In this document: positions 4,017 to 32,943 of the stretch, one piece after another | Numbering within the stretch: position 1 is the stretch's first letter | Layout: every line of letters starts with the position of its first letter | Source: a virus | Taxonomy: Duplodnaviria; Heunggongvirae; Uroviricota; Caudoviricetes | Reading direction: 5' to 3' (one strand) | Virus record (IMG/VR): IMGVR_UViG_3300021387_000074 | Length of the DNA stretch: 64,000 nt | Notes under the pieces: model-generated | What the model was told of the DNA's origin: nothing | Seen by the model: only the letters and a program-made list of their open reading frames with translations | Database searches by the model: none | Position numbers and translations under genes: made by a program

Positions 4017-6299
4017 TTAATTGTTTTTAACTAAAATCTTTTCAAACTGTCCACAGAATTCATTGAACTTTGTGCCAGTGTAGTGCTGAATAACATCCAT
4101 ACTACTCCAACATACAAGGTATGCTGTATCAAAATCTTCAACGTTCCAATCTTCAAGTGTATCTTCACAGTCAGATACTACGAAAAGGTTTCCAATATCA
4201 GCTGGCTGCATCTTATCCTTAACGTATCTAATGCCTGAGCCAATATCTGTTCCACCACCTGAAACCGCTTTGATTTCATCCTTTGAATCAAATATTGCAC
4301 GAAGACCAGTATCCCAAAGAACGATCGTACATTTCTTATCAACCATTCTAGATACATTCTTAAAGATATTACAGAATCCCAAAATATTCTTTTCTGAGAT
4401 AGAACCTGAAACGTCGAGAATAACTGTCATCGGAACATCCTCATAACGAGTTTCTTCACGATAACGTGGTGTAAGAACATCACCACAACCACGACCGCGG
4501 TTATAATTATAAAGCAAGTCTCTCTTAGAAGTTGTGATACTACGGTTAATCAAAAGTTCCTTGATTTCTTTTTCAAGTCCTTCGAAGTCAACCCAGTTAG
4601 AACATCCATCTGCAAGAACAGTTCCCTGTCCACCGCCACCACCTTTTGAGTAGCCCTGGAGTTCCTGATTCTGAGCGGCAGACTGTTCAGCCTTTGTTTC
4701 TACCATTTTCTGATAGTCTGTAACAATCTTCTGAACAAAGTTCTTGATCATTTCTTCAAGCTCTTCTTTTGTTGGCTGGTAAGGTTCTTCTACATCTCCA
4801 TCACCATCTTCGCCATCCTCTCCTTCTCCCGAATCCTGCCCATCTCCGCTTTCGCCCAACTGATCTGCATTATCGCCTTCAGCCTCTGATTCTCCGTCAG
4901 AGTTGTTCTCGGATTCATCTCCGTCTCCTGATAAATCTTCTCCGCTTTCACTAGATTCATCAGAACCTCCAGAAGATGCGTCGTTAGAAGCTGTGGATCC
5001 GTCATCTTCAGACTTCTCACCATCTTCTTCACTTCCGCCAGCATTTGAGTTCTGTTCATCTTCGGCTGAGTCTCCTCTATCAGAGCTTCCGCCGCTAGAA
5101 CTAGAATCTCCGTCTCTGTCGTCGGAGTCATTTCCGTCTTTAGATGAACTTCCCCCGTTAGAGGATTCTTTGTCTTCACTGCCTTTTTCTTCATCTGAAG
5201 AACCTCCGCCTACTCCGTCTGATCCGCTTTCAGATTTATCGTCAGATTTACTCTGTCCACTTGAGGCGCCAGCACTTTGTGAATCTCTATCTTCAGTATC
5301 TCCATCCTTGTTGTTAGAAGAAGAACCGCTTTGATTCTGAGAGCCGCTATTTTCATTCTGATTTTTTCCATCTTTCCAATCCTGTGACTGAGTATTTGCG
5401 GCAGCATCCTGGTTCTGTTGGTCTGAGCCCATACCCTGCTGTGGCTGCTGATTCTGCTGTCCGCTCTGAGAACCATTCTGCTGCTGATTGTTCTGTTGCT
5501 GGTTCTGCTGACCGCTCTGCCCATTCTGATTGTTCTGACCATTCTGATTTTGCTGATTGTTTTTCTGCTTTCTCTGTGGCTTATCCTTCTCTTCCTTATT
5601 GTGGTTCATATCAGCTTCATCTGGCTGACCACCACTTGAAGAACCGTCCTGGTTTGTATTACAACCACCCTGAGTACCGTTATTCTGCTGTCTGTTTCTC
5701 TGATTAGCTTGGGCTTGTGCCTGAGCCTGATTCATAAACCACTCTTCAGGGTTCTGCAAAATCAAAAGCAAATACTCGTTTGCTGTTAATCCTGGCGGAT
5801 ATCCAACATCTTGTGGAAGCATGTGATAAACTGGCTTTCCATCAATTATACACTCTTCAGGGTAAAGTGTATCCAAATATCTTACTTCATCTTCTGTGAA
5901 ATACTTTGTAAGACATTCCCAATCGCGCAACATTTTAAAGATATAATCTTCAAAGATGTCGTACATATTATCAACGTCCTGAACTGGATCATCAAATAAT
6001 GGTTTAAGTTTTTCATAAACCGCTCTGATTTTTGGAGCTGAAAACTTGAAGTCCAAACTCTGATGCTTTGCGTAATGCTGCAACTTAATGTGAGCGAACT
6101 CGATAGTTTTCAACCATTCCTTCAGTTCTTCGGGAAGCTGATCATTCAAAGCAATACGATAAACACTACCAGCAAGTCTATTGGAAATACGGTAAGTGTA
6201 ACAAACATTGCTCCAAGATTTGTTAGGAACTATCTGATAAAGTAGTCCTTTAGAAAATTTGTCCATTTCCTTTTTACAAGCTGGCAAGTTCATAGTCAT
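4017..6299 (-). CDS. von Willebrand factor A (VWA) protein with ~330-aa acidic/Q/N/S/G-rich disordered linker (CobT/BchD-like architecture)
   Basis: C-terminal MIDAS motif 'VILDVSGSIS' followed by 'SGGGTDIGSGI'. Central low-complexity region of about residues 190-520. Conserved N-terminal ~190-aa domain. Confidence 0.8.
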   Translation of the reverse strand: MTMNLPACKKEMDKFSKGLLYQIVPNKSWSNVCYTYRISNRLAGSVYRIALNDQLPEELKEWLKTIEFAHIKLQHYAKHQSLDFKFSAPKIRAVYEKLKPLFDDPVQDVDNMYDIFEDYIFKMLRDWECLTKYFTEDEVRYLDTLYPEECIIDGKPVYHMLPQDVGYPPGLTANEYLLLILQNPEEWFMNQAQAQAQANQRNRQQNNGTQGGCNTNQDGSSSGGQPDEADMNHNKEEKDKPQRKQKNNQQNQNGQNNQNGQSGQQNQQQNNQQQNGSQSGQQNQQPQQGMGSDQQNQDAAANTQSQDWKDGKNQNENSGSQNQSGSSSNNKDGDTEDRDSQSAGASSGQSKSDDKSESGSDGVGGGSSDEEKGSEDKESSNGGSSSKDGNDSDDRDGDSSSSGGSSDRGDSAEDEQNSNAGGSEEDGEKSEDDGSTASNDASSGGSDESSESGEDLSGDGDESENNSDGESEAEGDNADQLGESGDGQDSGEGEDGEDGDGDVEEPYQPTKEELEEMIKNFVQKIVTDYQKMVETKAEQSAAQNQELQGYSKGGGGGQGTVLADGCSNWVDFEGLEKEIKELLINRSITTSKRDLLYNYNRGRGCGDVLTPRYREETRYEDVPMTVILDVSGSISEKNILGFCNIFKNVSRMVDKKCTIVLWDTGLRAIFDSKDEIKAVSGGGTDIGSGIRYVKDKMQPADIGNLFVVSDCEDTLEDWNVEDFDTAYLVCWSSMDVIQHYTGTKFNEFCGQFEKILVKNN

Positions 6300-7807: not shown

Positions 7808-8206
7808 TTAATTCTCCTTCTTTAATTCAAGAACAGATTTGCCGTTTTCTTCAATAGCGCAGTACTCTGCAATTGAAAGAACGATAGCAGCAATACCACA
7901 AGTTATAAACATAAGCCAACCGATGCCACATATAGCCCCGAAAACAGATGGACATTTATTTTCAAATTTAGCGAATGCCCAAATAAGTTTAATAATTGCA
8001 CTTCCAATAGAAGACAAAACAATTAAGCCAACTGAAGAAACAACACCATAAATAGCAAGCATCATTTCTTTTCCAAGGAATGTTAAGTTTTCTGATTCAA
8101 ACAATTCGTCAATTTTAATTTTGAGTTTTTTTAGAAAACCTTCTTTCTGCTTTTTTGCAGGAGTTTCGCCAAAGGCGTCAACAAATACGTCTTTCTTCTT
8201 TCCCAT
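7808..8206 (-). CDS. membrane protein (2-3 TM helices)
   Basis: Hydrophobic segments 'LAIYGVVSSVGLIVLSSIGSAIIKLIWAF' and 'VFGAICGIGWLMFITCGIAAIVLSIA'. Confidence 0.45.
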   Translation of the reverse strand: MGKKKDVFVDAFGETPAKKQKEGFLKKLKIKIDELFESENLTFLGKEMMLAIYGVVSSVGLIVLSSIGSAIIKLIWAFAKFENKCPSVFGAICGIGWLMFITCGIAAIVLSIAEYCAIEENGKSVLELKKEN

Positions 8207-8862
8207 TATACTACCTCGTCAACAAGACCAAATTCAACAAGCTGCTCAGGTGTGTAATAAGTTTCTGTTTTGAACATTGTATCAAGCTGCTCTTCTGTAA
8301 GTTTAGAATGCTCAAGATAAACACCTTTATAGATCTTGTTCCAATTTTTGTTATTTGCAATAGCAATTTCCTGCTCTTCCTGAGTCTTAGGCATTGTATC
8401 TAATGCTCTCATTGGATGAATAAGGCTCATAGCATACTTAGAACAAGTTCTGTGATTTCCAACACAAGCGATAAGAGAAGCACCTGAATCGGCTTCGCCT
8501 TCAATGTGTGTATTTACTTTGATAGGCACTAAAGCATCACCAATTTGGCAAGCCTTTCCGCTCTGAATATCTTTAATTACCTGAACAATCTGCAAAGCGT
8601 CTGAAAGACTTCCACCATTTGAATTGATATGAAGTTCAATGTCTGCAGGTTTGTTACCTGTTTCAATACAAGCGTTTGTAATTGTAAGTGCTACCTCATG
8701 CAAATTTATAATCAAAGATCTTGTTGTGTCAGGATTGATTTCTTCGTTGAAGTAGTAATGATTTCTTACCAAATAATTCTTTGGTTCACCGCCGCCACCA
8801 AGTGCCGACAAGTCTAAAATCTGTCCTTCTCCACAAGAGTCTTTTACTTCTTTTTCTTCCAT
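8206..8862 (-). CDS. ClpP-like serine protease (S14 family)
   Basis: 'INSNGGSLSDALQIV' (ClpP INSPGGSV), 'GEADSGASLIA' catalytic Ser region, 'MSLIHP' (MIHQP His), 'FGLVDEV'. Confidence 0.7.
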   Translation of the reverse strand: MEEKEVKDSCGEGQILDLSALGGGGEPKNYLVRNHYYFNEEINPDTTRSLIINLHEVALTITNACIETGNKPADIELHINSNGGSLSDALQIVQVIKDIQSGKACQIGDALVPIKVNTHIEGEADSGASLIACVGNHRTCSKYAMSLIHPMRALDTMPKTQEEQEIAIANNKNWNKIYKGVYLEHSKLTEEQLDTMFKTETYYTPEQLVEFGLVDEVV

Positions 8863-8953
8863 AGTTTCTCCTTTTTATTTCTTTATGAGATAATTATAAC
8901 ATTTATTTGATTTTTTGTAAACTAAATTGGCTGGGAGATACCCAGCCACTTGA

Positions 8954-9385
8954 TTAGAATTGATTTAATTCTTCTTTTTTCTTTAAGAACTTTAAGTATT
9001 TGAATTTATAGAACCATCGTTTTCTGAAAAAATGTTTTAGCCATCTTTTCATAGCATCTTCTTCATTTTCTATTCCCCAAGGATTATAAACAAGGATAGA
9101 AGTTTTAACTGCTTTCCCTTCTTTTTTCTTATCATGAATTTCGCCGAGATATACTAAAGAATCTTTAAAGGCTTCTTGATAATCTCTGTTTAAAAAAGTA
9201 TCAGAAAAAAGCATATACTTTATATCTATTACTTCGTCAGATACTCCCGATTTCAAAGATATTGGAAGACCACCTTTGTCGTAATCCTTGAATGTTACAG
9301 GAATAATTGAGTAATCCATTTTTGTCTTATTTTTGTCATACTGATAAACTGTTAGTTGTAAAAAATACAAATTGTCATCTTTCAT
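8954..9385 (-). CDS. hypothetical protein
   Basis: 143-aa ORF with its own upstream promoter motif. No domain recognised. Confidence 0.45.
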   Translation of the reverse strand: MKDDNLYFLQLTVYQYDKNKTKMDYSIIPVTFKDYDKGGLPISLKSGVSDEVIDIKYMLFSDTFLNRDYQEAFKDSLVYLGEIHDKKKEGKAVKTSILVYNPWGIENEEDAMKRWLKHFFRKRWFYKFKYLKFLKKKEELNQF

Positions 9386-9402
9386 ACTTTAATTATACAC
9401 TA

Positions 9403-9984
9403 CTATTCTTTTTTTGTCAACGGGAATCTTTTCTGCCACCAAGCAGATTTCATATTAAACAAGCCACTTTCTTCTAGTGTTTCTTTGTAGGCGTCTTTTA
9501 CTTCTTTCATTCCGAGTTCCCATTTGAAAGAGTTATTACACAGATAGTTAATCAATTCACCGCGCCAATCAGAATGAATGTTCTGAGATGCGCCAGTTAA
9601 GAACTCTGTTATTTTTTCTTTTTCGACACCTTTTACTACAATGTTTAATAGCTTCTTGTTAAGAAGTTCTAACTCTGGGAAATTGCCAGTGTTGCCAAGA
9701 ACATGGATTAATTCGTGCATAATATAATCCATTGCCTTGTCTTTTGAAACAGTTGCAAACATTGGTCTGTTAATATAAATCTTAGTGCCTTGTGTATAAG
9801 CCATAACGTTGCTTTTCTGCTTAAAATCTCTAAGCACTAAAGTTACATTAAAAAATCTATTTATTTTCTTTAAAAACATTGGTGAAAAAACTTGTTCCAT
9901 ATATCTATGAAATAAGTTGTCGAGTGCCTTTTCGCCACTATTTATTCTTAAATCTTCTGTAAAAACTGCATCTTCAAAGTTCAT
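9403..9984 (-). CDS. putative zinc metallopeptidase (HExxH)
   Basis: 'DYIMHELIHVLGNTG' HExxH motif. Otherwise unassigned. Confidence 0.4.
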   Translation of the reverse strand: MNFEDAVFTEDLRINSGEKALDNLFHRYMEQVFSPMFLKKINRFFNVTLVLRDFKQKSNVMAYTQGTKIYINRPMFATVSKDKAMDYIMHELIHVLGNTGNFPELELLNKKLLNIVVKGVEKEKITEFLTGASQNIHSDWRGELINYLCNNSFKWELGMKEVKDAYKETLEESGLFNMKSAWWQKRFPLTKKE

Positions 9985-9995
9985 ACTATTAACTT

Positions 9996-11009
9996 TTATT
10001 TTTTATCAACCAGGTGAGAACCGTCTAAACTTATATTATTCTTGCCATTATGTTTAACAAAGAACATATTTTCATCTGACATTTTTACGACTTGTTGCTC
10101 TGTTAAATAATCAGCATTCTGAGCAACGCCAATACTTAAAGTAATTCCAAACTGTTGATAGAATAAATTCTGAATGCTTTTTAGTTTATTAACAGTTTCT
10201 TGTGTATTAAGTCTTGAAAGAATTACAAACTCTTCTCCACCATATCTGTAAACCTTAAATTCATCACTACTTACAAATAAACAAATGTCTGCAAGTTTCT
10301 TTAGACACAAATCTCCAAATTGATGTCCATGCTCGTTATTACAATTATGGAAATCGTCTATATCTATCATAGCAATAAATCTAAAATGTTTTGTTTTTAA
10401 ATCTTCATCAAACTTTCTTCTATTATATAGTTGAGTTAACTCATCATGAAACGTTAAGTTTAGTAATCTTTTATTATAGGTAAAACTTACATTTGAAAAA
10501 AAGTAAGTAAATAAGAATACAAACATATAGCCAACTGAGAAACTCAAGTTGTAAAGAATAATATTTCTATTTTCCATTGTAAAAACATTTTTATCTATAT
10601 AATAAAAGATTGCCAAATACTCTATAAGAGTCAAAATAGGCGCGAACAAGTATCTCTTTTTACTTACCGATATTCCATAAGCAACTGGGGCTATAAACAA
10701 GTAAAAAACAAAAGAGCCCGACAATCCTTTTTTATCTGCTAATAAAATTAGTGGGAATAAAACATTTGTACAACCAGCAGTTAATAATATTGCTGTAATA
10801 GTGTATGGTATTTTTTTTCTAAAAAGCCAAATAATCAATTGAAAGCCTAAACAAATAGCAGTTGGTAAAGCGTTCCCATGATTAGATGCAAAAGTAAGCG
10901 ACAAAATTAAACCAACCGTATTAGATAAAATACCCGCAACCGCCAAGATGTTGACAATTACGGGTTCTATAGGTTTTAATGAATTGTTATTTTTAAATCT
11001 CTTTTTCAT
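9996..11009 (-). CDS. membrane-anchored GGDEF-domain diguanylate cyclase
   Basis: About 5 N-terminal TM helices. C-terminal 'DELTQLYNRRKF', 'DIDDFHNCNNEHGHQFGD', and active-site 'RYGGEEF' (GG[D/E]EF). Confidence 0.75.
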   Translation of the reverse strand: MKKRFKNNNSLKPIEPVIVNILAVAGILSNTVGLILSLTFASNHGNALPTAICLGFQLIIWLFRKKIPYTITAILLTAGCTNVLFPLILLADKKGLSGSFVFYLFIAPVAYGISVSKKRYLFAPILTLIEYLAIFYYIDKNVFTMENRNIILYNLSFSVGYMFVFLFTYFFSNVSFTYNKRLLNLTFHDELTQLYNRRKFDEDLKTKHFRFIAMIDIDDFHNCNNEHGHQFGDLCLKKLADICLFVSSDEFKVYRYGGEEFVILSRLNTQETVNKLKSIQNLFYQQFGITLSIGVAQNADYLTEQQVVKMSDENMFFVKHNGKNNISLDGSHLVDKK

Positions 11010-11014
11010 AGATA

Positions 11015-11503
11015 TTAACTTAAATTTTTAAACTCTTTTTCTGTATCATATTGCAGTTTAATACCATCATACAAACCTTTAACGAATTCATTGTTTTGCT
11101 CTGTGTCAGATACAGAATTTTCAACAGCGGCAGCTTGGGCAGCTCTCTGCTCTAAGAATAAAACATTTTCATAACGATAAAGTGTTAGATTTCTTTCTCT
11201 ATTACTTTTTTTAATAAAATGATGATATTTAAAATTATAAATAAGTGAATAACCAATTCTTATAAAACAAACCGCTAAAACCATAAAAGCAAATGAATTT
11301 ACTGCATTTGGCTTCATAAAAAGTGCAATTAATTCACTTATAAATAAACAAAGCATTAAAGCAAATGATGCTTTATACCATTCCACATTTTCTACATTTT
11401 TATACTTAAAAAGATAAAAACGAAAACGAGCGGAAGCATCATTGTATTCCTTTTTTCTTGTTTCGACAAGCGTTGAAATATCGTCTAAAAGTTTTTCTAT
11501 CAT
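11015..11503 (-). CDS. membrane protein
   Basis: Two hydrophobic helices ('FALMLCLFISELIALF', 'FAFMVLAVCFIRIGYSLIY'). Confidence 0.45.
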   Translation of the reverse strand: MIEKLLDDISTLVETRKKEYNDASARFRFYLFKYKNVENVEWYKASFALMLCLFISELIALFMKPNAVNSFAFMVLAVCFIRIGYSLIYNFKYHHFIKKSNRERNLTLYRYENVLFLEQRAAQAAAVENSVSDTEQNNEFVKGLYDGIKLQYDTEKEFKNLS

Positions 11504-11536
11504 AGTTTACCTCACTACAGAAATTATACCACAAAA

Positions 11537-12247
11537 TTAAAATTTTGTAAATACATCTGTTAATTTAAGAATATCATGATGCTTATCCCAGCAAGCATTA
11601 AAATAATTCTTTAGATCAACTGTCTTTGTAGGATCAGAGATTATTTCAGTATCAATATCGAGATTTGTTTGCTCAGTAATTCCTTCTGCTTTTACTCTTT
11701 CCATCATGGCAAAATTTTCACATTCATGGCAGAAATAATCCTCTGAAATATCAATATCATGAGTATGACCATAAATATTAACAAGATTACTTCCTGGAGC
11801 CAAATACACTGGCTCGTGACTCATTAAGAATTTATCTTCCAAAAGTATTGGAAATGGGAAAACTCTATCAAAACCAAGAGCAATAAATAACTCATATGGG
11901 CTGTTATATTTTCCCTTAAAATCATTTACTCTGAAATGCATTTCTCTGTCGTGATTTCCAAGAACAATCCAAAGTTTTTTGCCATTCTTCTTCATTCTGT
12001 CGATACAAGCCTTTAATGTATCGAAAGTTAAAGAGCTATTAAGAGCAATATCACCAAGGTTTATAATTGTTGAGCCTGCAGGCAATTTGTCGAACTGAGA
12101 AAGAATATCCTCGTTCATCTGCTTAACAGCCTCCCAAGTAAACTCGTAAGGTCTATTGCAATATTTAATTATATTTTTATGAAACAAGTGGCTATCACTT
12201 GTTAAGTAAAATTTATCCAAATTCATCTTTTTCTCCATAAACAACAA
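11537..12247 (-). CDS. calcineurin-like metallophosphoesterase
   Basis: 'INLGDIALNS', 'IVLGNHDRE', 'IYGHTHD' phosphoesterase motifs. Confidence 0.7.
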   Translation of the reverse strand: MLFMEKKMNLDKFYLTSDSHLFHKNIIKYCNRPYEFTWEAVKQMNEDILSQFDKLPAGSTIINLGDIALNSSLTFDTLKACIDRMKKNGKKLWIVLGNHDREMHFRVNDFKGKYNSPYELFIALGFDRVFPFPILLEDKFLMSHEPVYLAPGSNLVNIYGHTHDIDISEDYFCHECENFAMMERVKAEGITEQTNLDIDTEIISDPTKTVDLKNYFNACWDKHHDILKLTDVFTKF

Positions 12248-12270
12248 AAGGCGCCGAAGCGCCTTTATTA

Positions 12271-12711
12271 TTAAACTTCAATTTCGTTATCTTTTAAGAA
12301 CTGTTTATAGCTTTCAAGGTTTGCTTCCATTGCTTTTAGTTCCTGTTTGTAAAGTTCAACGTTTGGCTTTGTAATATCAAAATCTTTGCAGAACTGCTTA
12401 ATGTCTTTAATATCAAAGACTGCACCATTTATTTCAGCACCTTTCTTATAAGTTTCAACTGGGTCTCCCCAATTTTCTGGCTTTACAAAAAATGCGCGTG
12501 CAGCCTCCTGACGATTGCAAATTAAGTTAGCAACCAAACCAGGATAAACAGCCCCTCTTTCTTTTTCGAATGTAAAAGCAGCACCGTCAATCGCTACCTT
12601 CTGTCCATTAAGAACTATTTCACCTTTTGCCAAATAAACAATTCCATCTTTCTTTTCACTCAGGTCGCGAAGTTCTTCTGCATACTTATTAAGTTCTTCT
12701 TTTGTAAGCAT
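12271..12711 (-). CDS. hypothetical protein
   Basis: ORF with a downstream GC hairpin terminator at 12248-12265. Confidence 0.5.
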   Translation of the reverse strand: MLTKEELNKYAEELRDLSEKKDGIVYLAKGEIVLNGQKVAIDGAAFTFEKERGAVYPGLVANLICNRQEAARAFFVKPENWGDPVETYKKGAEINGAVFDIKDIKQFCKDFDITKPNVELYKQELKAMEANLESYKQFLKDNEIEV

Positions 12712-12741
12712 TCAATTCTCCTTTTTTATAAGAAAATTATA

Positions 12742-13596
12742 TCATGCAGTTTCTACTTTGTCAAGTGCTTCTTCACTAAAACTTTGAACGTGTTCAGCCT
12801 CATCGAAAGAATTAACATAGTTATCAATATTAAATTTATATTCCTTTTCAGAAATACGAACAAATCCAAAAGCTTCTTCCAAGAATTTAATATTTGCTCT
12901 TTCTGCGCATTCGACAATCATATCATCAAATGGTTTACCATATAACTGATGGAATCTAAGTGCTTTTTCTTTATTAAAAGCATCTTTGTCTTCTATATTA
13001 TAGAAGCGCCATTGTCCATCTCCATCAAGAAATGCCCCTGAACTATCTTCTGTAAACCATTCGCCAGTTTCTTCTTCTTTATACCAATACTCACCCCAAA
13101 GATCATTAGCCATTTGATAAGCTTCATCTGAATACTGATCAAATTCGTTTAAGTCAAAACTTTGATCTGTGATGTAACCTTCACCACAATACACTGGCCC
13201 CTGTTCTTCTGAGTATTTATATTCAATTCCAATTCCTTTAGGTAATTTACTTACAAGTTTTTCAAGAACTGGAAGTGGTGGAGACCAAGCAGTCTGAAAC
13301 CAAAGTTCATTACCTTCAAACGATACTTCGTAAGCGTTCCATTTTGTTCCCCATTCTTTACACTGAAACTCATACCAATTTAGCCAAGGTCTTTCTTCAT
13401 CTTCTTGTATATGGGCTGCAGCTGGGTTTTCGCAAATATATTCTTGTGGACATTCTTCTTTGGTTTTTGGAAATGGAACAATCCATTCAAACCTAAATCC
13501 GTCTTCTTCTGTCCAACCTGGCTTTAAAGCGTTCATAACTTTTTCAAGACTTTCTCTTGAACTGAACGTTAAAACATTTTGAACATGATTAGGCAT
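12742..13596 (-). CDS. hypothetical protein (Trp/acidic-rich)
   Basis: 284-aa ORF. No motif recognised. Confidence 0.5.
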   Translation of the reverse strand: MPNHVQNVLTFSSRESLEKVMNALKPGWTEEDGFRFEWIVPFPKTKEECPQEYICENPAAAHIQEDEERPWLNWYEFQCKEWGTKWNAYEVSFEGNELWFQTAWSPPLPVLEKLVSKLPKGIGIEYKYSEEQGPVYCGEGYITDQSFDLNEFDQYSDEAYQMANDLWGEYWYKEEETGEWFTEDSSGAFLDGDGQWRFYNIEDKDAFNKEKALRFHQLYGKPFDDMIVECAERANIKFLEEAFGFVRISEKEYKFNIDNYVNSFDEAEHVQSFSEEALDKVETA

Positions 13597-16566: not shown

Positions 16567-16569
16567 TTA

Positions 16570-16639
16570 GCCACATGTAGGAGTCGAACCCACCTCTCTT
16601 GATTACAGGTCAAGCCCTCAACCGATAAGACAATGTGGC
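16570..16639 (-). tRNA. tRNA-Thr (UGU)
   Basis: Acceptor GCCACAT/ATGTGGC, T-loop TTCGACT, anticodon loop CCUGUAA. Position 33 is C rather than U. Confidence 0.55.
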
Positions 16640-16649
16640 ATAAAAAAGT

Positions 16650-16720
16650 CAGCTATATAGGATTTGAACCTACAACATTCACATTAAGAGTGTGCTGCTC
16701 TACCGTTGAGCTAATAGCCG
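16650..16720 (-). tRNA. tRNA-Lys (CUU)
   Basis: D-arm GCTC-AACGGTA-GAGC, anticodon loop CUCUUAA, T-loop TTCAAAT. Acceptor paired, with one G-U. Confidence 0.6.
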
Positions 16721-16725
16721 ATAGT

Positions 16726-16797
16726 GTGTCCAATGGGATTCGAACCCATCCTAAAAGATCCACAATCTTTTGTGCTAACCGCTAACACTATGGATAC
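16726..16797 (-). tRNA. tRNA-His (GUG)
   Basis: Anticodon arm AAAGA-UUGUGGA-UCUUU. T-arm ATGGG-TTCGAAT-CCCAT. Confidence 0.65.
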
Positions 16798-16800
16798 AGT

Positions 16801-16871
16801 CGTTCCCGTAGGACTTGAACCTACAACCTCCGTCTTGTAAGGGCGGCACTCTACCATTGAGTTAGAGAACG
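16801..16871 (-). tRNA. tRNA-Val (UAC)
   Basis: D-arm ACTC-AATGGTA-GAGT, anticodon loop CUUACAA, T-loop TTCAAGT. Confidence 0.6.
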
Positions 16872-16878
16872 AAATTGC

Positions 16879-16950
16879 GTGAGTAGAGAGAATCGAACTC
16901 CCGTTCATTTGGTTCGTAGCCAAAGGCACTATCCATTATACCATACTCAC
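16879..16950 (-). tRNA. tRNA-Arg (ACG)
   Basis: Acceptor GTGAGTA/TACTCAC. Anticodon arm TTTGG-CUACGAA-CCAAA. T-loop TTCGATT. Confidence 0.65.
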
Positions 16951-16954
16951 ATAT

Positions 16955-17024
16955 TCCTCCACAAGGACTCGAACCCTGCCTAAATCATCCAGAGTGATTT
17001 GTGCTACCACTACACTACGGAGAA
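16955..17024 (-). tRNA. tRNA-Gln (CUG)
   Basis: Anticodon arm AATCA-CUCUGGA-TGATT, D-stem GTGT/GCAC, T-loop TTCGAGT. Confidence 0.6.
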
Positions 17025-17034
17025 ATGTATAAAT

Positions 17035-17106
17035 GAGCTCGGCGGGGATCGAACCCACGACCCTAACATTAAAAGTGTTATGCTCTACCAATTGAGCTAC
17101 GAGCCC
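17035..17106 (-). tRNA. tRNA-Lys (UUU)
   Basis: Acceptor GGGCTCG/CGAGCTC. D-arm GCTC-AATTGGTA-GAGC. Anticodon loop CUUUUAA. T-arm GTGGG-TTCGATC-CCCGC. Confidence 0.75.
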
Positions 17107-17252
17107 GTATGCTGAATCTTTGTGCCGACCAAAGTTTCTTCCCTTTATGAGGGGGAATAGGAGCCGTCCTACCACTCAGCAAATTTGGCGAGGTGTATAG
17201 ATACATTAACAGTGTATTGCTTCATCAGCATAGGAACACCTTTTGCCATAGC

Positions 17253-17323
17253 CCAGAGGGTAGGACTCGAACCTACAACCCTCGGATCTTCAATCCACCG
17301 CGCCACCGTTGCGCCACCTCTGG
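17253..17323 (-). tRNA. tRNA-Phe (GAA)
   Basis: Acceptor CCAGAGG/CCTCTGG. D-arm GCGC-AACGGTG-GCGC. Anticodon loop UUGAAGA. T-arm GTAGG-TTCGAGT-CCTAC. Confidence 0.7.
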
Positions 17324-17328
17324 ATAAA

Positions 17329-17360
17329 ATAAAAAAGGCTTAGTATTTCTACTAAGCCTT
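17329..17360 (-). terminator. hairpin plus U-run (minus strand) immediately 5' of tRNA-Phe
   Basis: The minus strand reads AAGGCTTAGTAGAAATACTAAGCCTTTTTTATTTTAT. Confidence 0.5.
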
Positions 17361-17944
17361 CAAAACAAAATACAAGTTTTTCTACATTATCACTTGATAT
17401 TTTCTCCTGAAGACTCAGCAATATGTTTACACATAAAGACTGTGTGCTGTTTATGAGTAGTTTTAGTTGTCTTTGTAAATACTGTTGTAAACATATTCTT
17501 TTCTCCTATAAAATTAACTTGTAAGTGGGCGATAAGAAGTGACTTCTCAATTTTCTCATTCTTGTTTGCTCGCGACGCAAGATTCCATTTGATATGGAAG
17601 GCCCTTAAGCGCATTTCTGCCACGAGAAAACCGAAAAGCCAATTCACTTTTAAGGTCTTCAACCGCCATTTCTAGACAATGACAACCACAATTCACCGCC
17701 TATTCAGGTTGTCATAAGATGTTATACTCAGGGTCTGCTAAAAGACGGCAACCGACTATCCAATAAAAGTCAGATAGCACTTTATTTGTATAACAAATTC
17801 GATAACTTAATCAACTAGCCCTCGGAAATCGGGTCGTAAATCCGAAACGTTAGCCCCTAAGGCTACTGTGTTACTCTTACACCATTTCCTTCTTGTCGGG
17901 AGCCTATCCCCGCAATACTTCTTTACTAAGTTATCTAGCAAGGT

Positions 17945-18020
17945 CTCGGGTGACCGAATCGAACAGTCCCGATGTCCAGCTTATGAGGCTGGTGAGCCAC
18001 AACCAGTGCTCCAACCCGAA
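17945..18020 (-). tRNA. tRNA-Met/Ile2 (CAU)
   Basis: Anticodon arm CCAGC-CUCAUAA-GCTGG. D-stem GAGC/GCTC. T-arm GACTG-TTCGATT-CGGTC. Confidence 0.6.
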
Positions 18021-18107
18021 ACGAATAAATTCTTTATGTAATTATCTTATCATAAAGAATAAAATTTGTCAAGCGATGTGTTTACCCAATCGCTTAATGG
18101 GTTTAGT

Positions 18108-18182
18108 CGAGGTCGCAGGAGTTGAACCTGCCTGAACCAACTACCCTTTCAACACCTTATCAGAGTGAGGGGATACACCTCG
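18108..18182 (-). tRNA. tRNA-like element (anticodon not resolved)
   Basis: T-arm GCAGG-TTCAACT-CCTGC and a 6-bp acceptor pairing. The interior could not be folded canonically by eye. Confidence 0.35.
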
Positions 18183-18481
18183 GAAGGAAAGTCCTGTGTG
18201 GTGAAACTTACAGTATACCTTTATCATTTTCTGGCTTATCCCTTAAGGGTTTGCGTAAGCCTTTATTTAGGTGGCATGAACGTTATCCGCCGACAACTTC
18301 CACCACTACCTTTAATCAGGGTAGCATATTCGTATAATTCATCAACTACTTTAACGCGCGTAATTTTAGTTGATTACTCCGAATAACTTTTGTGTAGGTA
18401 ATTACGCTTTAAGAAAAACTCCTACACGCGTTTTTCTCTGCGTAGCATTTAACCTTGCGTAAGGTGGATTTTCTCCCGATT

Positions 18482-18553
18482 AGTTCTTGCGGGGATCGAA
18501 CCCACTCCTCCACCTTGAAAGGGTGGCGACTCAACCTTTTTGTCCTAAGAACC
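18482..18553 (-). tRNA. tRNA-Glu (UUC)
   Basis: Anticodon arm CCACC-CUUUCAA-GGTGG. T-arm GTGGG-TTCGATC-CCCGC. Acceptor GGTTCTT/AAGAACT. Confidence 0.6.
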
Positions 18554-18648
18554 ATATAGCAGGCAAGTTATGGTTAAAGGTCGCGGGTTTATCACAACCA
18601 ACTTGCCAGGAAACCCATGCTGCATAATACGGACTGTTATTGTCCTTT

Positions 18649-18731
18649 GGATTAGGTCGGACTCGAACCAACATTCCTACGCTTTCCACTGTGGGCTTTA
18701 ACGTAGAGCCTAGCCATTAACTGACTAACCC
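18649..18731 (-). tRNA. type II (long variable arm) tRNA, anticodon undetermined
   Basis: Acceptor GGGTTAG/CTAATCC pairs fully. T-arm GTTGG-TTCGAGT-CCGAC. The 83-nt length implies a long variable arm. Confidence 0.45.
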
Positions 18732-19049
18732 ATAAAAATTTGGCAACTTTACCGAATTGTAATTTGCCGAAGGTCTTGCCTACCTATCGTTAAAGTAGGA
18801 ACGCTAACAGAGATTTGTGCGTTAGCCACTAGAAGCTGAATCGTTTTATAAAATAATGGTTTTACGGTAACCAGCCGCTTACACTGACGTTGGAACAACC
18901 AATTCCTCCGAAGTGTTTCTCGATTACACATAACGCACTGCTTCGCTAGGGCGCGGCTTGCTTTCACCACCTAAACAAGCAAAGGGTTTCTTAGGTTATA
19001 CAACCACAAGTATTTTTGGTTAAAGGAACCTCGTTTTCCTTATGACTTA

Positions 19050-19078
19050 ATTTTACCACGAAAGTAAAATTTTGTCAA
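19050..19078 (-). promoter_or_regulatory. sigma70-type promoter inside the tRNA region (minus strand)
   Basis: The minus strand reads TTGACA, then a 17-nt spacer (aaattttactttcgtgg), then TAAAAT. Confidence 0.5.
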
Positions 19079-19082
19079 TAGC

Positions 19083-19154
19083 AGGCGGTGCCCGATTCGA
19101 ACAGGCGTCCAACGGATTTGGAGTCCGTGATTTTAGCCGCTAAACTAACCACCT
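19083..19154 (-). tRNA. tRNA-Trp (CCA)
   Basis: Anticodon arm ACGGA-CUCCAAA-TCCGT. Acceptor AGGTGGT/ACCGCCT. T-loop TTCGAAT. Confidence 0.7.
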
Positions 19155-19265
19155 ATAATTAACCCAAACCACCGAGTTAGCGCTACCACGGATTTACGGT
19201 TTTGTATGAGCACTGCTATTCATCATAGCTTCCTATAAAGCGCATCTCTCATACTAAGGTTTAGA

Positions 19266-19337
19266 GCACCATCACGGATTCGAACCGAGGCTTTCTGCTT
19301 GGAGGGCAGACGTGCTAGCCGCTAACACTAATGATGC
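19266..19337 (-). tRNA. tRNA-Gly (UCC)
   Basis: Acceptor GCATCAT/ATGGTGC. D-stem GTGT/GCAC. Anticodon arm TCTGC-CCUCCAA-GCAGA, with C at position 33. Confidence 0.55.
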
Positions 19338-19519
19338 ATAATTGGCGGAGTGTATAACTCTTTTTTTCCTAAAAAATTTTAAATAGGAACACTCTTTGCC
19401 ATACGGAAGCGGCGAGTCCCGACCTCGCATTTCCCGAAGGAACCCAACTTAGCAGGCTGGTGGTTTTGCCAATTCACCCACACTTCCAAAAAGTGGGTTA
19501 GCACGTATCCACTTTATTG

Positions 19520-19650
19520 TTGACGTCATTTTAGGACTCGAACCTATTTGTGCTAACCCTAGCATTGTTATGTCTCCTCATAACAAAAGTGGACACAGGC
19601 AGCATCGAACTGCTTCTATTCCGCTGTGCAAGAGCGGCGAGATGCCAAAC
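19520..19650 (-). ncRNA. unresolved tRNA-like region with two T-arm motifs
   Basis: GGTTCGAGTCC and AGTTCGATGCTGC motifs, plus hairpin GTTATG-AGGAGA-CATAAC. No canonical cloverleaf could be assembled. Confidence 0.3.
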
Positions 19651-19837
19651 CTCCCCAGGCCCATAAAAAAGGTGTTCGGGTTTATCGTCGCAGACGTCAT
19701 ACGACTAGTTAGTTTTGTTCCGTTTGCACTCCTCGATGTTATTACTGCCGAGTGTAAACGTATCGGTTCAGTTTGCCCGAAAAGATCTAACATACTTCAT
19801 TAACCAAACGCCCCGAACTGTTACGCTTGGATTTAGT

Positions 19838-19910
19838 GGAGCGGGGGAGCATCGAACTCCCAACCTCATGATTGCAAATCACGTATTCTAGCCAATTGAA
19901 CTACCGTCCC
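19838..19910 (-). tRNA. tRNA-Ala (UGC)
   Basis: Anticodon loop UUUGCAA. G3:U70 identity pair present. T-arm GGGAG-TTCGATG-CTCCC. Confidence 0.7.
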
Positions 19911-20058
19911 ATAAATGGTCGGTGATTTTAAGGGCTCACCTTTTGTCAGCATATAACCTTCTGACGCATCCTCTCGGAAAATACCCAGGCAACGTACCTA
20001 CAGTATATGACTTGTAGGGGTTTTGTTCAACTTACTGAACCTGCCCAATAAAGCTTGC

Positions 20059-20145
20059 GGAGTATGCAAGACTCGAACTTGCGCCACGCTCATCGCATGT
20101 CAACGGTTTTCAAGACCGCCCGTATAGCCGCTAACTCAATACTCC
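20059..20145 (-). tRNA. tRNA-Ser (UGA), type II
   Basis: 87 nt. Acceptor GGAGTAT/ATACTCC. Anticodon loop CUUGAAA. Long variable arm. T-arm GCAAG-TTCGAGT-CTTGC. Confidence 0.65.
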
Positions 20146-20153
20146 ATAAAAGT

Positions 20154-20223
20154 CTGTATGGTAGGACTCGAACCTACGAAGCCTTGTTCCCAAAACAAGT
20201 GGATTAACCGCTCTCCCACACAC
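20154..20223 (-). tRNA. tRNA-Pro (UGG)
   Basis: Anticodon arm CTTGT-UUUGGGA-ACAAG. T-arm GTAGG-TTCGAGT-CCTAC. Confidence 0.65.
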
Positions 20224-20358
20224 AGATAAAAGTTGTTAGATCGCCGCGCAGCACAACCAAAGATTGTACATTAGTGTCCTTGCGGATTACCAATCTTCTT
20301 TATGGATATCTTTCGATAGGTCTTATCTAGGCACCCTTCCATAAATAAACAACTTAGC

Positions 20359-20428
20359 GGGCTAGGCAGGAATTGAACCTGCGTCCACGGATTAACAGTC
20401 CGCTGTATAACCATTTTACTACTAACCC
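20359..20428 (-). tRNA. tRNA-Asn (GUU)
   Basis: Anticodon arm GCGGA-CUGUUAA-TCCGT. T-arm GCAGG-TTCAATT-CCTGC. Confidence 0.6.
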
Positions 20429-20438
20429 AAATTTTAGT

Positions 20439-20522
20439 TGGCAGGGAGGGACTCGAACCCCCAACGTTTCTGATGTCACGGATTTACAGTCCGCTGCCTT
20501 CAGCCATTCGGCACACCTACCA
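20439..20522 (-). tRNA. tRNA-Tyr (GUA), type II
   Basis: 84 nt. D-arm TGCC-GAATGGCTGAA-GGCA. Anticodon loop CUGUAAA. Long variable arm. Confidence 0.65.
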
Positions 20523-20531
20523 ATAAGTAGC

Positions 20532-20603
20532 GGGATATGCGAGAATTGAACCCGCGCTCTCCTGAGTGACAGTCAGGCGTATGCACCATTTTACCAATAT
20601 CCC
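20532..20603 (-). tRNA. tRNA-Asp (GUC)
   Basis: Acceptor GGGATAT/ATATCCC. Anticodon arm CCTGA-CUGUCAC-TCAGG. Confidence 0.65.
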
Positions 20604-20613
20604 AAATGTTAGT

Positions 20614-20693
20614 CGGCTCGGAGAGACTCGAACTCTCACGTCAAAGACACATGATCCTAAGTCATGCGTGGCTGCCAATTACACCACGAGCCG
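20614..20693 (-). tRNA. tRNA-Leu (UAG), type II
   Basis: 80 nt. Acceptor CGGCTCG/CGAGCCG. Anticodon arm CATGA-CUUAGGA-TCATG. 13-nt variable arm. Confidence 0.65.
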
Positions 20694-20702
20694 AAAATAA
20701 AA

Positions 20703-20733
20703 AAGGCTTCTGATTTGTGTCAGAAGCCTTTAT
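20703..20733 (-). terminator. hairpin plus U-run upstream of the tRNA array (minus strand)
   Basis: The minus strand reads AAAGGCTTCTGACACAAATCAGAAGCCTTTTTTATTTTCGG. Confidence 0.5.
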
Positions 20734-20883
20734 ATAATAAACTCAGCTTCCGTCACGTTCTTGGATCATAGGCAGGTTCATACGATACGCCACTATTAAG
20801 TGTTGCAATAATGAGAGAATCTGCACTGTAATTATTCCAAGAATTTTTCATTTTGTTTTCCTTTTAATTTAACTTGTGACTAT

Positions 20884-20912
20884 ATTATAAAACACAAATT
20901 AATTTTTGTCAA
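20884..20912 (-). promoter_or_regulatory. sigma70-type promoter for the 20915..21682 gene
   Basis: The minus strand reads TTGACA, then 17 nt, then TATAAT (from + strand 'attataaaacacaaattaatttttgtcaag'). Confidence 0.55.
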
Positions 20913-20914
20913 GA

Positions 20915-21682
20915 TTACTTTCTTAATAAGAAAGCTCTCATCCATTTTTCAACGATTGTTTCTTCATTTTTTCTGAACCAATCGAGCAACTGTTTTTCGT
21001 TTTTGAAATCAAGCGGAATAATTCTACTTCTAAACAAAAACCCAAACAAATCCCAATTAGAAAGACTAAGAAAATAACTTTTTCGTTTCCACCAATGAGT
21101 TATCTCCCAACCTTCTTCGGGCTTATATTTTGGAGGATAAATCTCAGTAGTTATATACTTCTTTTCTTCTTTGCGTTTACCCGCAAATCCAGAATTCCAA
21201 GGCATATAAAAACCATAGTTTACTTTTTCTATAACTACTCTTTCAAGAACTATTGTATAAAGTGGCTTATCTTCATTATAAACCAAATCAACATAATCCT
21301 TATATTTTTCCCAAAGAGGGCGATGCTTAACACCATATCTATAATCTAGACCAAAAATTTCTTTTTCAAAATTTCTGCGGTATTCATCTTTGCCGCCCCA
21401 ATAGTAATTTCCCCCATCTGATGCCCAACCCCATTTATCAGCAAATCTCAAAGAATAATCAATGTTTTCGTTAATAAACTTTTCTTCAGGCTGAACACCA
21501 TCTTTTGTGCAAAGAAAACAACGATCATCATAAAGAACTTCTTTAATGATAGTACCTTCCATTTCTTTACACAATCTCCTATCCTTCTGTCTGCGTTCTT
21601 TGTGATACTGTTGGCGACACCATTTATCGCCTCTAGATTTGCAAATAGAATGATAAGGTTTTTTCTTAAAGCTTCTACTCAT
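20915..21682 (-). CDS. hypothetical protein (basic, Trp-rich)
   Basis: 255-aa ORF with promoter and RBS upstream. Confidence 0.5.
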   Translation of the reverse strand: MSRSFKKKPYHSICKSRGDKWCRQQYHKERRQKDRRLCKEMEGTIIKEVLYDDRCFLCTKDGVQPEEKFINENIDYSLRFADKWGWASDGGNYYWGGKDEYRRNFEKEIFGLDYRYGVKHRPLWEKYKDYVDLVYNEDKPLYTIVLERVVIEKVNYGFYMPWNSGFAGKRKEEKKYITTEIYPPKYKPEEGWEITHWWKRKSYFLSLSNWDLFGFLFRSRIIPLDFKNEKQLLDWFRKNEETIVEKWMRAFLLRK

Positions 21683-21800
21683 ATTTTTCTCCTAACTAAT
21701 TTAAGTTAGAATATTGTATACTTCATAAGAATCTCCTTTATTCTTTCTAGGAACGTGAAATAATCTTCACGCAAAATTTCCTCTTGCAACCTCGTTCTAC

Positions 21801-21860
21801 AGTCAGGACTCGAACCCGATCCAAAGACCATGCAGGTCTGTGTGCAACCGTTACACCTCT
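21801..21860 (-). ncRNA. degenerate tRNA-like fragment
   Basis: GGGTTCGAGTCC T-arm motif, but no matching 5' acceptor strand within 90 nt. Confidence 0.25.
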
Positions 21861-21866
21861 GAGATT

Positions 21867-21936
21867 TCTTCCGCGAGGACTCGAACCCAGCCTGCAAGAT
21901 CCAAATTCTTGAGTGCGACCGCTACACTACGGAAGA
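21867..21936 (-). tRNA. tRNA-Gln (UUG)
   Basis: Paralog of the Gln(CUG) gene. Acceptor TCTTCCG/CGGAAGA pairs perfectly. Anticodon arm CAAGA-AUUUGGA-TCTTG. Confidence 0.6.
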
Positions 21937-21946
21937 ATAAATTAGT

Positions 21947-22027
21947 CGGCAAGGTGGGATTCGAACCCACACGTCCGAAGACAACTGATTTTGAGCCAGC
22001 CAAGACTACCAATTCCATCACTCACCG
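21947..22027 (-). tRNA. tRNA-Leu (CAA), type II
   Basis: 81 nt. T-arm GTGGG-TTCGAAT-CCCAC. Anticodon loop CUCAAAA. Variable arm GTCTTCGGAC. Confidence 0.55.
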
Positions 22028-22267
22028 AAAAGAAGGGCGTTTAATACGCATTCTCTAATAATGCAGTTGCCCTTCGCCCAAGTATTTATAGTGCGTCGTG
22101 GCGATACACTTGAAAAGATTTTATGTTGTTCTTTTCATCAACATCAAAATTATAACACGAAGTCATAATTTTGTAAAGGGATGGGCTACCACCCAACCTC
22201 CACCACCTAGTTTCATTAATGTTTCTGAGAAGGAAGCTTCAAAAAACTAGGAAACAAATACCTTAGT

Positions 22268-28077: not shown

Positions 28078-28137
28078 AATTACCCCTTAATCTTCTTGAT
28101 AATACAATTATACTACCAAGAAGAAGATTTGTAAAGA

Positions 28138-28503: not shown

Positions 28504-28520
28504 ATTATAACAATAGTATT

Positions 28521-32940: not shown

Positions 32941-32943
32941 TGA

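Follow-up and report, generated by a model that had tools for sequence, protein, structure and literature searches.

The 64,000-nucleotide stretch of Caudoviricetes DNA considered here (IMG/VR virus record IMGVR_UViG_3300021387_000074; hereafter 'the window', meaning the whole of that stretch) contains an open reading frame (ORF) at positions 9996-11009 of its minus strand, and the analyses described below support the conclusion that this ORF encodes a phage diguanylate cyclase, in which a polytopic membrane module is joined to a GGDEF domain with an intact active site, and for which catalysis is predicted. The features of the gene and its product to which the argument refers are the following.

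9996..11009, minus strand: the GGDEF-gene ORF (ATG start, 337 amino acids), encoding a module of six transmembrane (6TM) segments, a stalk helix and the GGDEF domain
10485..11009, minus strand: N-terminal membrane module (residues 1-175), described from hydropathy, the distribution of Lys and Arg, an AlphaFold2 model and conservation
10035..10451, minus strand: GGDEF catalytic domain (residues 187-325), recognized by Pfam, phmmer and Foldseek
10311..10340, minus strand: guanine-recognition pair N224...D233, D233 being the 'Hypr' specificity position
10257..10268, minus strand: expected position of an RxxD inhibitory site (I-site; residues 248-251), which reads S-D-E-F
10227..10241, minus strand: GGEEF active-site (A-site) motif (residues 257-261), checked in the translation

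The catalytic domain, its predicted product and the membrane module

The Pfam GGDEF model (PF00990) covers residues 187-325 of the protein, extending from profile position 2 to 161 of 161 (E=7.9e-23, with a score of 81.4 bits relative to a cutoff of 23.8), and the motifs whose coordinates were checked within that domain comprise DELT at residues 189-192, RRKFD at 197-201, IDID at 215-218, N224, D233 and GGEEF at 257-261. The metal-binding aspartates (D216 and D218), the residues of the DxLT motif (D189, L191 and T192) and R255 are all present and invariant in the family; the metal-binding aspartate that precedes the first helix corresponds to D327 of PleD. The glutamate at the fourth position of GG[D/E]EF has been assigned the role of general base (PMC6456294). 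An AlphaFold2 model built with 27 homologs as input displays a mean predicted local distance difference test score (pLDDT) of 85.1, with values for the GGDEF domain that lie mostly between 87 and 96, apart from one 10-residue block at 77. In a Foldseek comparison with the PDB, 99 chains match at E<=0.001, and all 50 of the 50 matches listed are structures of diguanylate cyclases; the solved enzymes matched by phmmer and Foldseek are DgcR, SadC, DgcZ, WspR, PleD and ImcA, the best sequence match among them being DgcR (E=1.7e-14).

Alignment of 27 family members further established which residues are maintained. Those that are invariant comprise D189, L191, T192, N196-R198, D216, D218, F220, N224, G228, H229, G232, D233, R255, G258, E259, K309, K319, G322 and N324, and three more (G257, E260 and F261) are kept in at least 90% of the 27 homologs. 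The exception to an otherwise intact active site is P0026, encoded on a 9,973-bp contig, in which DGEKF replaces GGEEF and the C-terminal ADENM...GKN motif is altered, and which is predicted to be catalytically dead. A preliminary description of this DNA had reported the ORF at precisely these coordinates, with a polytopic N-terminal domain, a complete GGDEF domain with an intact GGEEF site and upstream motifs of the DxLT and RxxFD types, and had named active-site substitutions on closer alignment as an outcome that would speak against it. The ORF list, the six TM segments and the domain and motif assignments agree with that account throughout, and a degenerate site was rejected both for the window gene and for 26 of the 27 homologs, which keep GGEEF and the other catalytic residues.

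The same description had regarded product specificity as open, on the grounds that GGDEF enzymes of the Hypr type can also generate cyclic GMP-AMP (cGAMP), and had proposed that the specificity position and the I-site be inspected in an alignment. Hypr enzymes carry a serine (Ser348 in GacA) where canonical GGDEF enzymes carry an aspartate (Hallberg et al. 2019, PMC6456294). All 27 members of the present family have Asp (D233) at that position, the motif being GGEEF, and the spacing from N224 to D233 (9 residues) is the same as that of N339...S348 in GacA. The natural Ser/Thr (Hypr) enzymes, of which GacA of Geobacter is an example from the same domain family, display GGDE[F/Y] exclusively, whereas the combination found here, Asp with GGEEF, was solely a diguanylate cyclase when introduced into GacA mutants (PMC6456294). 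Because of that combination the enzyme should be specific for GTP, with cyclic di-GMP (c-di-GMP) rather than cGAMP as its predicted product; Hypr specificity was rejected on both counts, and at the level of sequence the question is not really open.

Inspection of the I-site, for which an RxxD motif is expected five residues upstream of GG[D/E]EF, indicated that this motif is absent in 27 of 27 family members, S248...F251 standing in its place. In an ungapped alignment to DgcR, serine and phenylalanine replace the inhibitory arginine and aspartate (native DgcR reads RKSD, and the crystallised I-site mutant AKSA), and the GGDEF proteins of phages SP-15 and G carry REED at the columns where ORF 9996-11009 has SDEF. 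Allosteric product inhibition is not expected, because RxxD is missing. With respect to possible partners, none of the best 25 of 30 Pfam families found among the 97 ORFs of the window is EAL, HD-GYP or PilZ, and a single GGDEF is present, which bears out the earlier statement that no such domain is visible nearby. PADLOC defence models returned zero matches for the GGDEF protein and six neighbours, and membership in a defence system was rejected on that basis.

The N-terminal half of the protein was examined by similar means. A hydropathy scan identified six hydrophobic segments (residues 17-35, 45-63, 73-91, 95-113, 120-138 and 150-168), and the AlphaFold2 model contains corresponding helices at 15-39, 41-62, 69-92, 99-114, 122-141 and 150-185, the last of which continues as a stalk into a standard GGDEF fold. 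Both termini are predicted to lie inside, with the GGDEF domain in the cytoplasm, because Lys and Arg residues cluster at the N-terminus and in the loops formed by residues 62-68 and 114-121; the outside loops are just 8-13 residues in length. Conserved intramembrane residues include N30, T50, F85-P86, Y103, Y111, P124 and E130. No Pfam model reaches threshold on this module: MASE11 (PF20969) scores 13.4 bits on the window protein relative to a gathering score of 27.3, and gives sub-threshold matches in 6 of the 27 members, the best of them at E=0.0043. MASE11 has been described as a domain of seven predicted TM segments, among them a short hairpin within the membrane (bioRxiv 10.1101/2021.11.05.467447), whereas hydropathy and AlphaFold2 both give six full-length helices here. 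A Pfam assignment of the module was rejected, the MASE11 matches being sub-threshold and those to MASE7 and 6TM_PilS being one-off occurrences among relatives. When a profile of the module alone was compared with 1.84 billion representative proteins, 69 clusters were found at E<=1e-3 (20 of the 69 at E<=1e-10); among 61 of these matches that were scanned, 41 contain GGDEF and 5 contain histidine-kinase domains (HisKA/HATPase_c), in some cases together with REC or Hpt, with the kinase-linked proteins sitting among the weaker matches. The module is rare by these measures, and looks like a signal-input domain.

The protein family, its phage and previously described relatives

A search of 5.8 billion proteins yielded approximately 26 full-length homologs, with identities of 34-96% and lengths of 331-346 amino acids (P0017 is a 238-residue fragment), beyond which E-values jump from 1e-39 to 1e-22 and the matches become generic bacterial GGDEF proteins. 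The number and range of these homologs exclude, on sequence grounds, a chance occurrence of the ORF and its GGDEF domain, and every genomic context examined for a full-length homolog is phage-like. In six of six lineage variants, three of which were found with the neighbouring 193-residue HExxH protein as the sole query, the GGDEF gene has the HExxH gene directly downstream and a ClpP-like gene two genes downstream, a position that is kept down to 42% identity. Because the same position is occupied in six distinct variants, the GGDEF gene is a stable gene of this phage lineage. The membrane half of the protein is less conserved (31-35% identity) than the catalytic half (52-59%), and in the closest pair that could be used the ratio of nonsynonymous to synonymous substitution (dN/dS) amounts to 0.14; taken separately, the TM half gives 0.18 and the GGDEF half 0.08. 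These values are approximate since dS is about 1.1 and near saturation. The gene is under purifying selection.

A scan of 185,579 species genomes revealed no full-length relative, but solely generic matches to the GGDEF domain, at no more than 40% identity and distributed across all phyla; because only the catalytic domain was matched in that scan, the family is apparent neither in cellular genomes nor as a prophage. The nearest cellular proteins of 6TM-GGDEF type, at 25-33% identity, are P0030, P0068 and a protein from a Lachnospiraceae metagenome-assembled genome (P0072), all of similar size and architecture; P0030 and P0068 reside in plainly bacterial neighbourhoods. The alignments of these cellular proteins with the phage protein reach into the TM region. 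The RxxD motif is absent in at least P0030 and P0072 as well.

The preliminary description had called the gene phage-encoded, an assignment that is upheld by phage genes on both of its flanks, by coding on one strand (all long ORFs of the window are on the minus strand), by a copy of the protein in IMG/VR and by its absence from the species genomes. The window carries approximately 30 tRNA genes, a transfer-messenger RNA (tmRNA) and a full-length ROOL RNA, together with rIIA (phrog_612, E=2.8e-83), an Rnl1-type RNA ligase, the ClpP-like protease, two GIY-YIG endonucleases and other homing endonucleases, a set of NAD-salvage genes and a GroES homolog. Its classification as phage follows from rIIA, Rnl1, the homing endonucleases, the tRNA array and membership in IMG/VR. 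No cellular housekeeping gene was seen in the window, nor does it contain a capsid, portal or terminase gene. A megablast comparison of positions 8000-13000 with 50,697 phage records gave no close DNA relative, and rIIA is at most 38% identical to that of any deposited phage. Six contigs encode an identical GGDEF protein, and the longest of them belongs to the 0.2-1 Mb class; the three listed come from separate assemblies, one of them being 123.5 kb long and another belonging to AUXO01, the sheep-rumen metagenome assembly of Shi et al. 2014. A copy that is 79% identical resides on a viral contig of 64.7 kb in IMG/VR, and related contigs reach 190 and 227 kb, those in the 190-227-kb range being ERZ27279231 k141_125695, ERZ27297758 k141_458209 and ERZ12302816 NODE_196. 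On the basis of its gene content and of this recurrence on rumen and viral contigs, the window is therefore regarded as the accessory, early-type arm of a large, uncultivated, lytic-type rumen phage.

Comparison with characterized diguanylate cyclases places the protein among familiar enzymes. PleD, WspR, DgcZ and DgcR share its fold and its active-site set, comprising DxLT, the metal-binding aspartates, the N...D pair, the arginine two residues before GG[D/E]EF and the C-terminal KxxGxN; in contrast to the phage protein, PleD, WspR and DgcR possess an RxxD I-site, the canonical enzymes use Rec or CZB as input where the phage protein has its 6TM module, and the phage GGDEF domain is approximately 20 residues shorter in loops. 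ImcA of Pseudomonas aeruginosa (cryo-EM structure 8wcn) is the top Foldseek match in the PDB (full-length alignment, E=7e-10) and, like the phage protein, passes directly from six TM helices into GGDEF (378 vs. 337 amino acids). The two are 18% identical, with a TM-score of 0.40 and a root-mean-square deviation of 12 A over the full length, so that homology of their TM domains is not established. The TM domain of ImcA forms a dimer, is needed for activity and accepts an inhibitory membrane partner (PMC10904736); ImcA differs from the phage protein in that it is a chromosomal component of an iron response, with IsmP as that partner.

GGDEF genes have also been annotated in Bacillus jumbo phages, as SP-15 gp150 ('diguanylate cyclase', 183 amino acids) and G gp350 (254 amino acids). 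These proteins are likewise encoded by phages with large genomes, infecting Firmicutes, and have an intact GG(D/E)EF; they are 26-31% identical to the window protein in the GGDEF domain only, are short, with at most one N-terminal hydrophobic segment, and both have RxxD (REED). The SP-15 gene sits in a glycosyltransferase cluster, and the literature searched contained no characterization of either protein. Relative to these examples the window gene is distinguished by its 6TM input module, its lack of an I-site and its fixation within a phage lineage. Among predicted viral structures, eight proteins have a GGDEF fold, and the best match is UniProt A0A6J5LEQ5 (Foldseek E=1.3e-11 over 354 columns), a 358-residue protein of an uncultured Caudovirales phage named 'Diguanylate cyclase AdrA'. 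It is also a membrane-module-plus-GGDEF protein from a metagenomic phage, but is 20% identical and falls outside the lineage-specific family of the window gene, and its name suggests an AdrA-like (MASE2) module. PHROGs contains seven GGDEF-containing families, all labelled as of unknown function, and a survey of jumbo phages lists HD-GYP and other phosphodiesterases, with GGDEF appearing just in its reference list (PMC7824862). A different route to the same messenger is taken by the YIP peptides of Pseudomonas phages, small peptides that raise host c-di-GMP during infection through the host cyclase YfiN (PMC8085984), whereas the window phage carries the cyclase itself. The literature searched contained no experimentally characterized phage diguanylate cyclase; phage GGDEF genes are rare but already catalogued, and the window gene is not a new kind of system.

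Neighbouring genes and other features of the window

The genes and signals that surround the GGDEF gene are as follows.

12247..12266, minus strand: terminator-like hairpin, the nearest upstream of the promoter at 11523-11551, with the metallophosphoesterase ORF in between
11537-12247, minus strand: metallophosphoesterase ORF (calcineurin-like), two genes upstream of the GGDEF gene
11523..11551, minus strand: sigma70-type promoter (TTTACA-17-TGgTATAAT; 11/12 matches, extended -10), 19 nt upstream of the start of ORF162
11015..11503, minus strand: upstream ORF162, a small protein of 162 amino acids with a two-TM hairpin, whose stop lies 5 nt before the GGDEF start
9403..9984, minus strand: downstream HExxH ORF (193 amino acids, HELIH), with weak DUF4157/eCIS_core/SprT-like matches
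8928..8948, minus strand: terminator-like hairpin after ORF143 (8954-9385), the first downstream of the GGDEF unit

Because the promoter precedes ORF162 by 19 nt and the gaps between genes are 5 nt and 11 nt (the HExxH gene starts 11 nt past the GGDEF stop), ORF162, the GGDEF gene and the HExxH gene are probably one unit, transcribed by host RNA polymerase. The HExxH gene adjoins the GGDEF gene in every related locus and is the better conserved of the two (65-74% identity); its product is a possible zinc metallopeptidase. A small TM protein occupies the slot preceding the GGDEF gene in five of six variants, and is of two unrelated types that follow the GGDEF clades: an ortholog of ORF162 is present in L009 (68% identity), an unrelated TM protein of 183-190 amino acids is found in L001, L002 and L092, and the gene is absent in L091. 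The ORF162 product is thus a possible membrane partner of the GGDEF protein, whereas an obligatory partnership was rejected, since three variants have a non-homologous protein in its place and one has none. A role for the metallophosphoesterase as a linked phosphodiesterase was left as speculation, since a promoter separates that gene from the GGDEF unit; in L001 the sole gene with a recorded Metallophos match is approximately 6 kb from the GGDEF gene, and adjacency is not kept. The GGDEF gene of phage G (L094 3265-4564) likewise has a metallophosphoesterase gene at a distance of two genes, either by coincidence or possibly as a pairing with a nucleotide phosphodiesterase.

Sequences matching TTGACA-17-TATAAT at 11 or more of 12 positions occur 27 times on the coding strand of the window and 2 times on the other strand, relative to 1.9 in shuffles. 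Many of the 27 have an extended -10 TG, and most are intergenic and approximately 20-80 nt before an ORF start, with a few much further away; their placement, mostly just upstream of ORFs and blocks of tRNA genes, represents an unusually regular early-promoter layout that could be used to define an early regulon. Shine-Dalgarno cores precede 63% of ORFs, relative to a background of 9%. The promoters and ribosome-binding sites of Bacteroides differ from the canonical type. Because the window displays canonical -35/-10 promoters and Shine-Dalgarno sites, the host is likely to be other than Bacteroidota, and hence likely to possess c-di-GMP signalling. The GGDEF and HExxH genes are both without a Shine-Dalgarno sequence, and are both immediately preceded at the ATG by AAGTTAATA(T/G) (at 9985-9995 and 11010-11020), a shared string that may be a signal for translational coupling or for low translation. 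The region is further marked by a local patch of low G+C content around the fast-evolving cassette, at 8954-11503, in which the GGDEF gene (0.286), ORF162 (0.276) and ORF143 (0.280) are three of the four lowest-G+C ORFs in the window (ORF mean 0.361, standard deviation 0.037; z=-2.0 for the GGDEF gene).

Several features elsewhere in the window were recorded in the course of the analysis. A ROOL RNA (Rfam RF03087) at 46612-47180 on the minus strand scores 270 bits and spans model positions 1-574 of 574; it is flanked by a tRNA-Arg gene (46521-46595) on one side and a small ORF on the other, in a large lytic-type phage. ROOL was first found in cow-rumen metagenomes, often near tRNAs and in prophages (PMC5737381), and forms RNA-only homo-oligomeric complexes (PMC12286853). 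The approximately 30 tRNA genes, densely arrayed, are distributed over 16569-22595 (minus strand), 42370-48913 and 61600-61670. The odd anticodon loops reported by ARAGORN are a 4-base anticodon at 48363-48434, a 2-base anticodon at 61600-61670, tRNA-Asn(att) and tRNA-Cys(aca). The phage tmRNA that follows the array, at 22264-22595, encodes the tag DEDFEDSYAMVA*, which has an unusual ending. Adjacent to rIIA is a 760-residue ORF (4017-6299, minus strand) that no PHROG matches; in L001-L003 the corresponding place before rIIA is taken by genes of comparable size (606-758 amino acids), and the position of the window ORF beside rIIA suggests that it is a very divergent rIIB. A set of genes for NAD+ salvage and synthesis occupies 27484-34480 on the minus strand, and an isochorismatase/nicotinamidase and an AAA_33 kinase are encoded elsewhere in the window. 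The set resembles phage NAD+-reconstitution pathways that counter NAD-depleting immunity, and its members are listed here.

27484-28077, minus strand: NMNAT-like cytidylyltransferase
29576-30367, minus strand: NAD synthase
30606-31193, minus strand: NUDIX
33239-34480, minus strand: NAPRTase

Proposed mechanism, competing explanations and significance

We consider it probable that the protein acts as a dimeric, membrane-anchored and feedback-insensitive diguanylate cyclase, which converts GTP to c-di-GMP in the infected cell and whose expression from a host-type promoter is probably early. Because promoters of consensus host sigma70 type stud this arm of the genome, host RNA polymerase would transcribe the GGDEF gene soon after infection. 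The six-helix module, and the continuous helix that joins its sixth TM segment to the stalk, would then pair two GGDEF domains at the membrane in the manner of ImcA; each domain would bind one GTP (via N224, D233 and Mg2+ held by D216 and E259), and the pair would condense these to c-di-GMP. Since the RxxD I-site is missing, the product could not shut off the enzyme allosterically, and c-di-GMP would be expected to rise. Host effectors of c-di-GMP would lock the cell in a non-motile, adhesive state with a remodelled surface, from which the phage might gain, for example, by the exclusion of superinfecting phages or by the retention of the infected host within dense biofilm attached to plant fibre. 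Four elements of this account are inferred, foremost among them what the phage would gain; the others are the pairing of subunits by way of the TM module, expression early in infection and an increase in c-di-GMP. The reprogramming of biofilm or motility and the interference with immunity that the preliminary description had suggested are likewise conjectural.

A number of observations weigh against this interpretation. Nothing found in the 64-kb window indicates a target: neither an effector of c-di-GMP nor a phosphodiesterase for it was found there, and Rfam revealed no c-di-GMP riboswitch, either at the gathering score or at E<=1. The absence of a recognizable Shine-Dalgarno sequence means that translation of the GGDEF gene is possibly low. 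The gene diverges faster than its neighbours, with 43% identity in L092 relative to 65-89% for the products of genes nearby (HExxH protein 65%, metallophosphoesterase 73%, ClpP 89%), the dN/dS values carry the saturation noted above, and the degenerate site of P0026 indicates that catalysis is dispensable in some lineage. The membrane module resembles a sensor input that a few histidine kinases share, so that the enzyme may be gated, and the literature searched contains no enzymatic or in vivo data for any phage GGDEF protein.

The most serious of the competing explanations is an extension of the consideration just given, namely that the 6TM module switches synthesis on only when prompted by a cue at the membrane or by a partner (for which the upstream small TM protein, a superinfection signal or envelope stress are candidates), thereby producing a conditional phage signal and no flood of c-di-GMP. 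This is a variant compatible with the membrane-anchored cyclase proposed above, and is a real possibility, if clearly the less probable of the two. Its case is built from the occurrence of the module in 41 GGDEF proteins and 5 histidine kinases among the 61 matches scanned, with stray weak matches to MASE11, MASE7 and 6TM_PilS; use with several types of output is a criterion by which MASE sensor domains have been defined (bioRxiv 10.1101/2021.11.05.467447). The conservation of polar intramembrane residues (N30, T50, Y103, Y111 and E130) points in the same direction, as do the small TM protein that fills the upstream slot in most variants, with a type that tracks the GGDEF clade, and the precedent of ImcA, which is controlled by IsmP through contacts between TM segments (PMC10904736). 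Set against these points, an extracytoplasmic ligand pocket could not be accommodated in such short outside loops, one variant lacks the upstream TM gene and its types are non-homologous between clades, the histidine-kinase matches are among the weaker ones in a collection of which 20 of 69 reach E<=1e-10, and no Pfam MASE model attains its gathering score. A non-catalytic role, in which the GGDEF protein would bind nucleotides or partners as a scaffold or receptor at the membrane and would synthesize no c-di-GMP, can draw on P0026, on the compactness of the domain (139 residues for a 161-position profile) and on the fact that degenerate GGDEF receptors are common in bacteria. That reading is improbable, since all catalytic, metal-binding and substrate-binding residues are intact in 26 of 27 members, the dN/dS of the GGDEF domain is 0.08, and RxxD, which is the usual c-di-GMP-binding site of receptor-type GGDEF domains, is missing. 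Still less credible is a Hypr-type or promiscuous enzyme that makes cGAMP or another dinucleotide, the argument for which is the general precedent alone that some GGDEF enzymes generate cGAMP (PMC6456294), and which conflicts with the invariant Asp and the GGEEF motif.

It is also conceivable, but rather unlikely, that the enzyme serves in counter-defence or metabolism, with c-di-GMP acting as a decoy or competitor at receptors of the CBASS (cyclic-oligonucleotide-based antiphage signalling system) type, or with a drain on GTP reprogramming the host. The window is rich in functions of the counter-defence type (the NAD-salvage set, an RNA-repair ligase and many tRNAs), an enzyme free of an I-site could use up GTP unrestrained, and decoy nucleotides do occur in conflicts between phages and hosts, where in Panoptes they are made by the host system (PMC12657218). 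Neither the protein nor its neighbours match any PADLOC model, no cyclic-nucleotide sponge or nuclease is linked to the GGDEF gene, and no evidence was found of c-di-GMP blocking any CBASS effector. In hosts with TIR-STING, c-di-GMP would trigger immunity rather than block it. The last explanation, that a bacterial gene was mis-assembled into, or binned with, phage sequence, might be entertained because many 'phage' database records with GGDEF matches resemble host contamination, and because the GGDEF gene and its two small neighbours make up the patch of lowest G+C in the window. It is effectively refuted: the gene order recurs on independent assemblies from different samples and in IMG/VR, at 42-100% identity, phage genes flank both sides, and no close full-length copy is present in the species genomes.

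A more ambitious proposal, to which we assign little probability, is that c-di-GMP is a signal owned by the phage, in that the 6TM module (possibly together with the upstream small TM protein) senses an event at the membrane and triggers feedback-free synthesis. That event might, at similarly long odds, be superinfection, envelope stress or loss of membrane potential, for example, and the resulting signal might, as a comparably speculative further step, time development or lysis through c-di-GMP-responsive elements elsewhere in a genome of more than 200 kb, or blunt immunity based on cyclic dinucleotides. If true, this would represent a second-messenger circuit owned by a virus, and would go beyond the blunt manipulation of host behaviour.

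The membrane-anchored, feedback-insensitive cyclase that we favour has implications of its own. The existence of 27 natural variants, one of which has a degenerate site (P0026) and thereby provides a built-in control, and the compact size of the 337-residue protein make the proposal directly testable, and the module itself adds a rare, uncatalogued 6TM input to the membrane domains that are coupled to c-di-GMP enzymes. Bacteria change between motile and sessile life chiefly by means of c-di-GMP, on which phages depend or which they perturb indirectly, as through the receptor glycan of N4 and the YIP peptides. In the rumen, attachment to plant fibre governs both the ecology of the host and the transmission of its phages. 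That purifying selection has maintained a feedback-insensitive cyclase in a phage lineage suggests that control of this messenger by the virus itself is a stable strategy.

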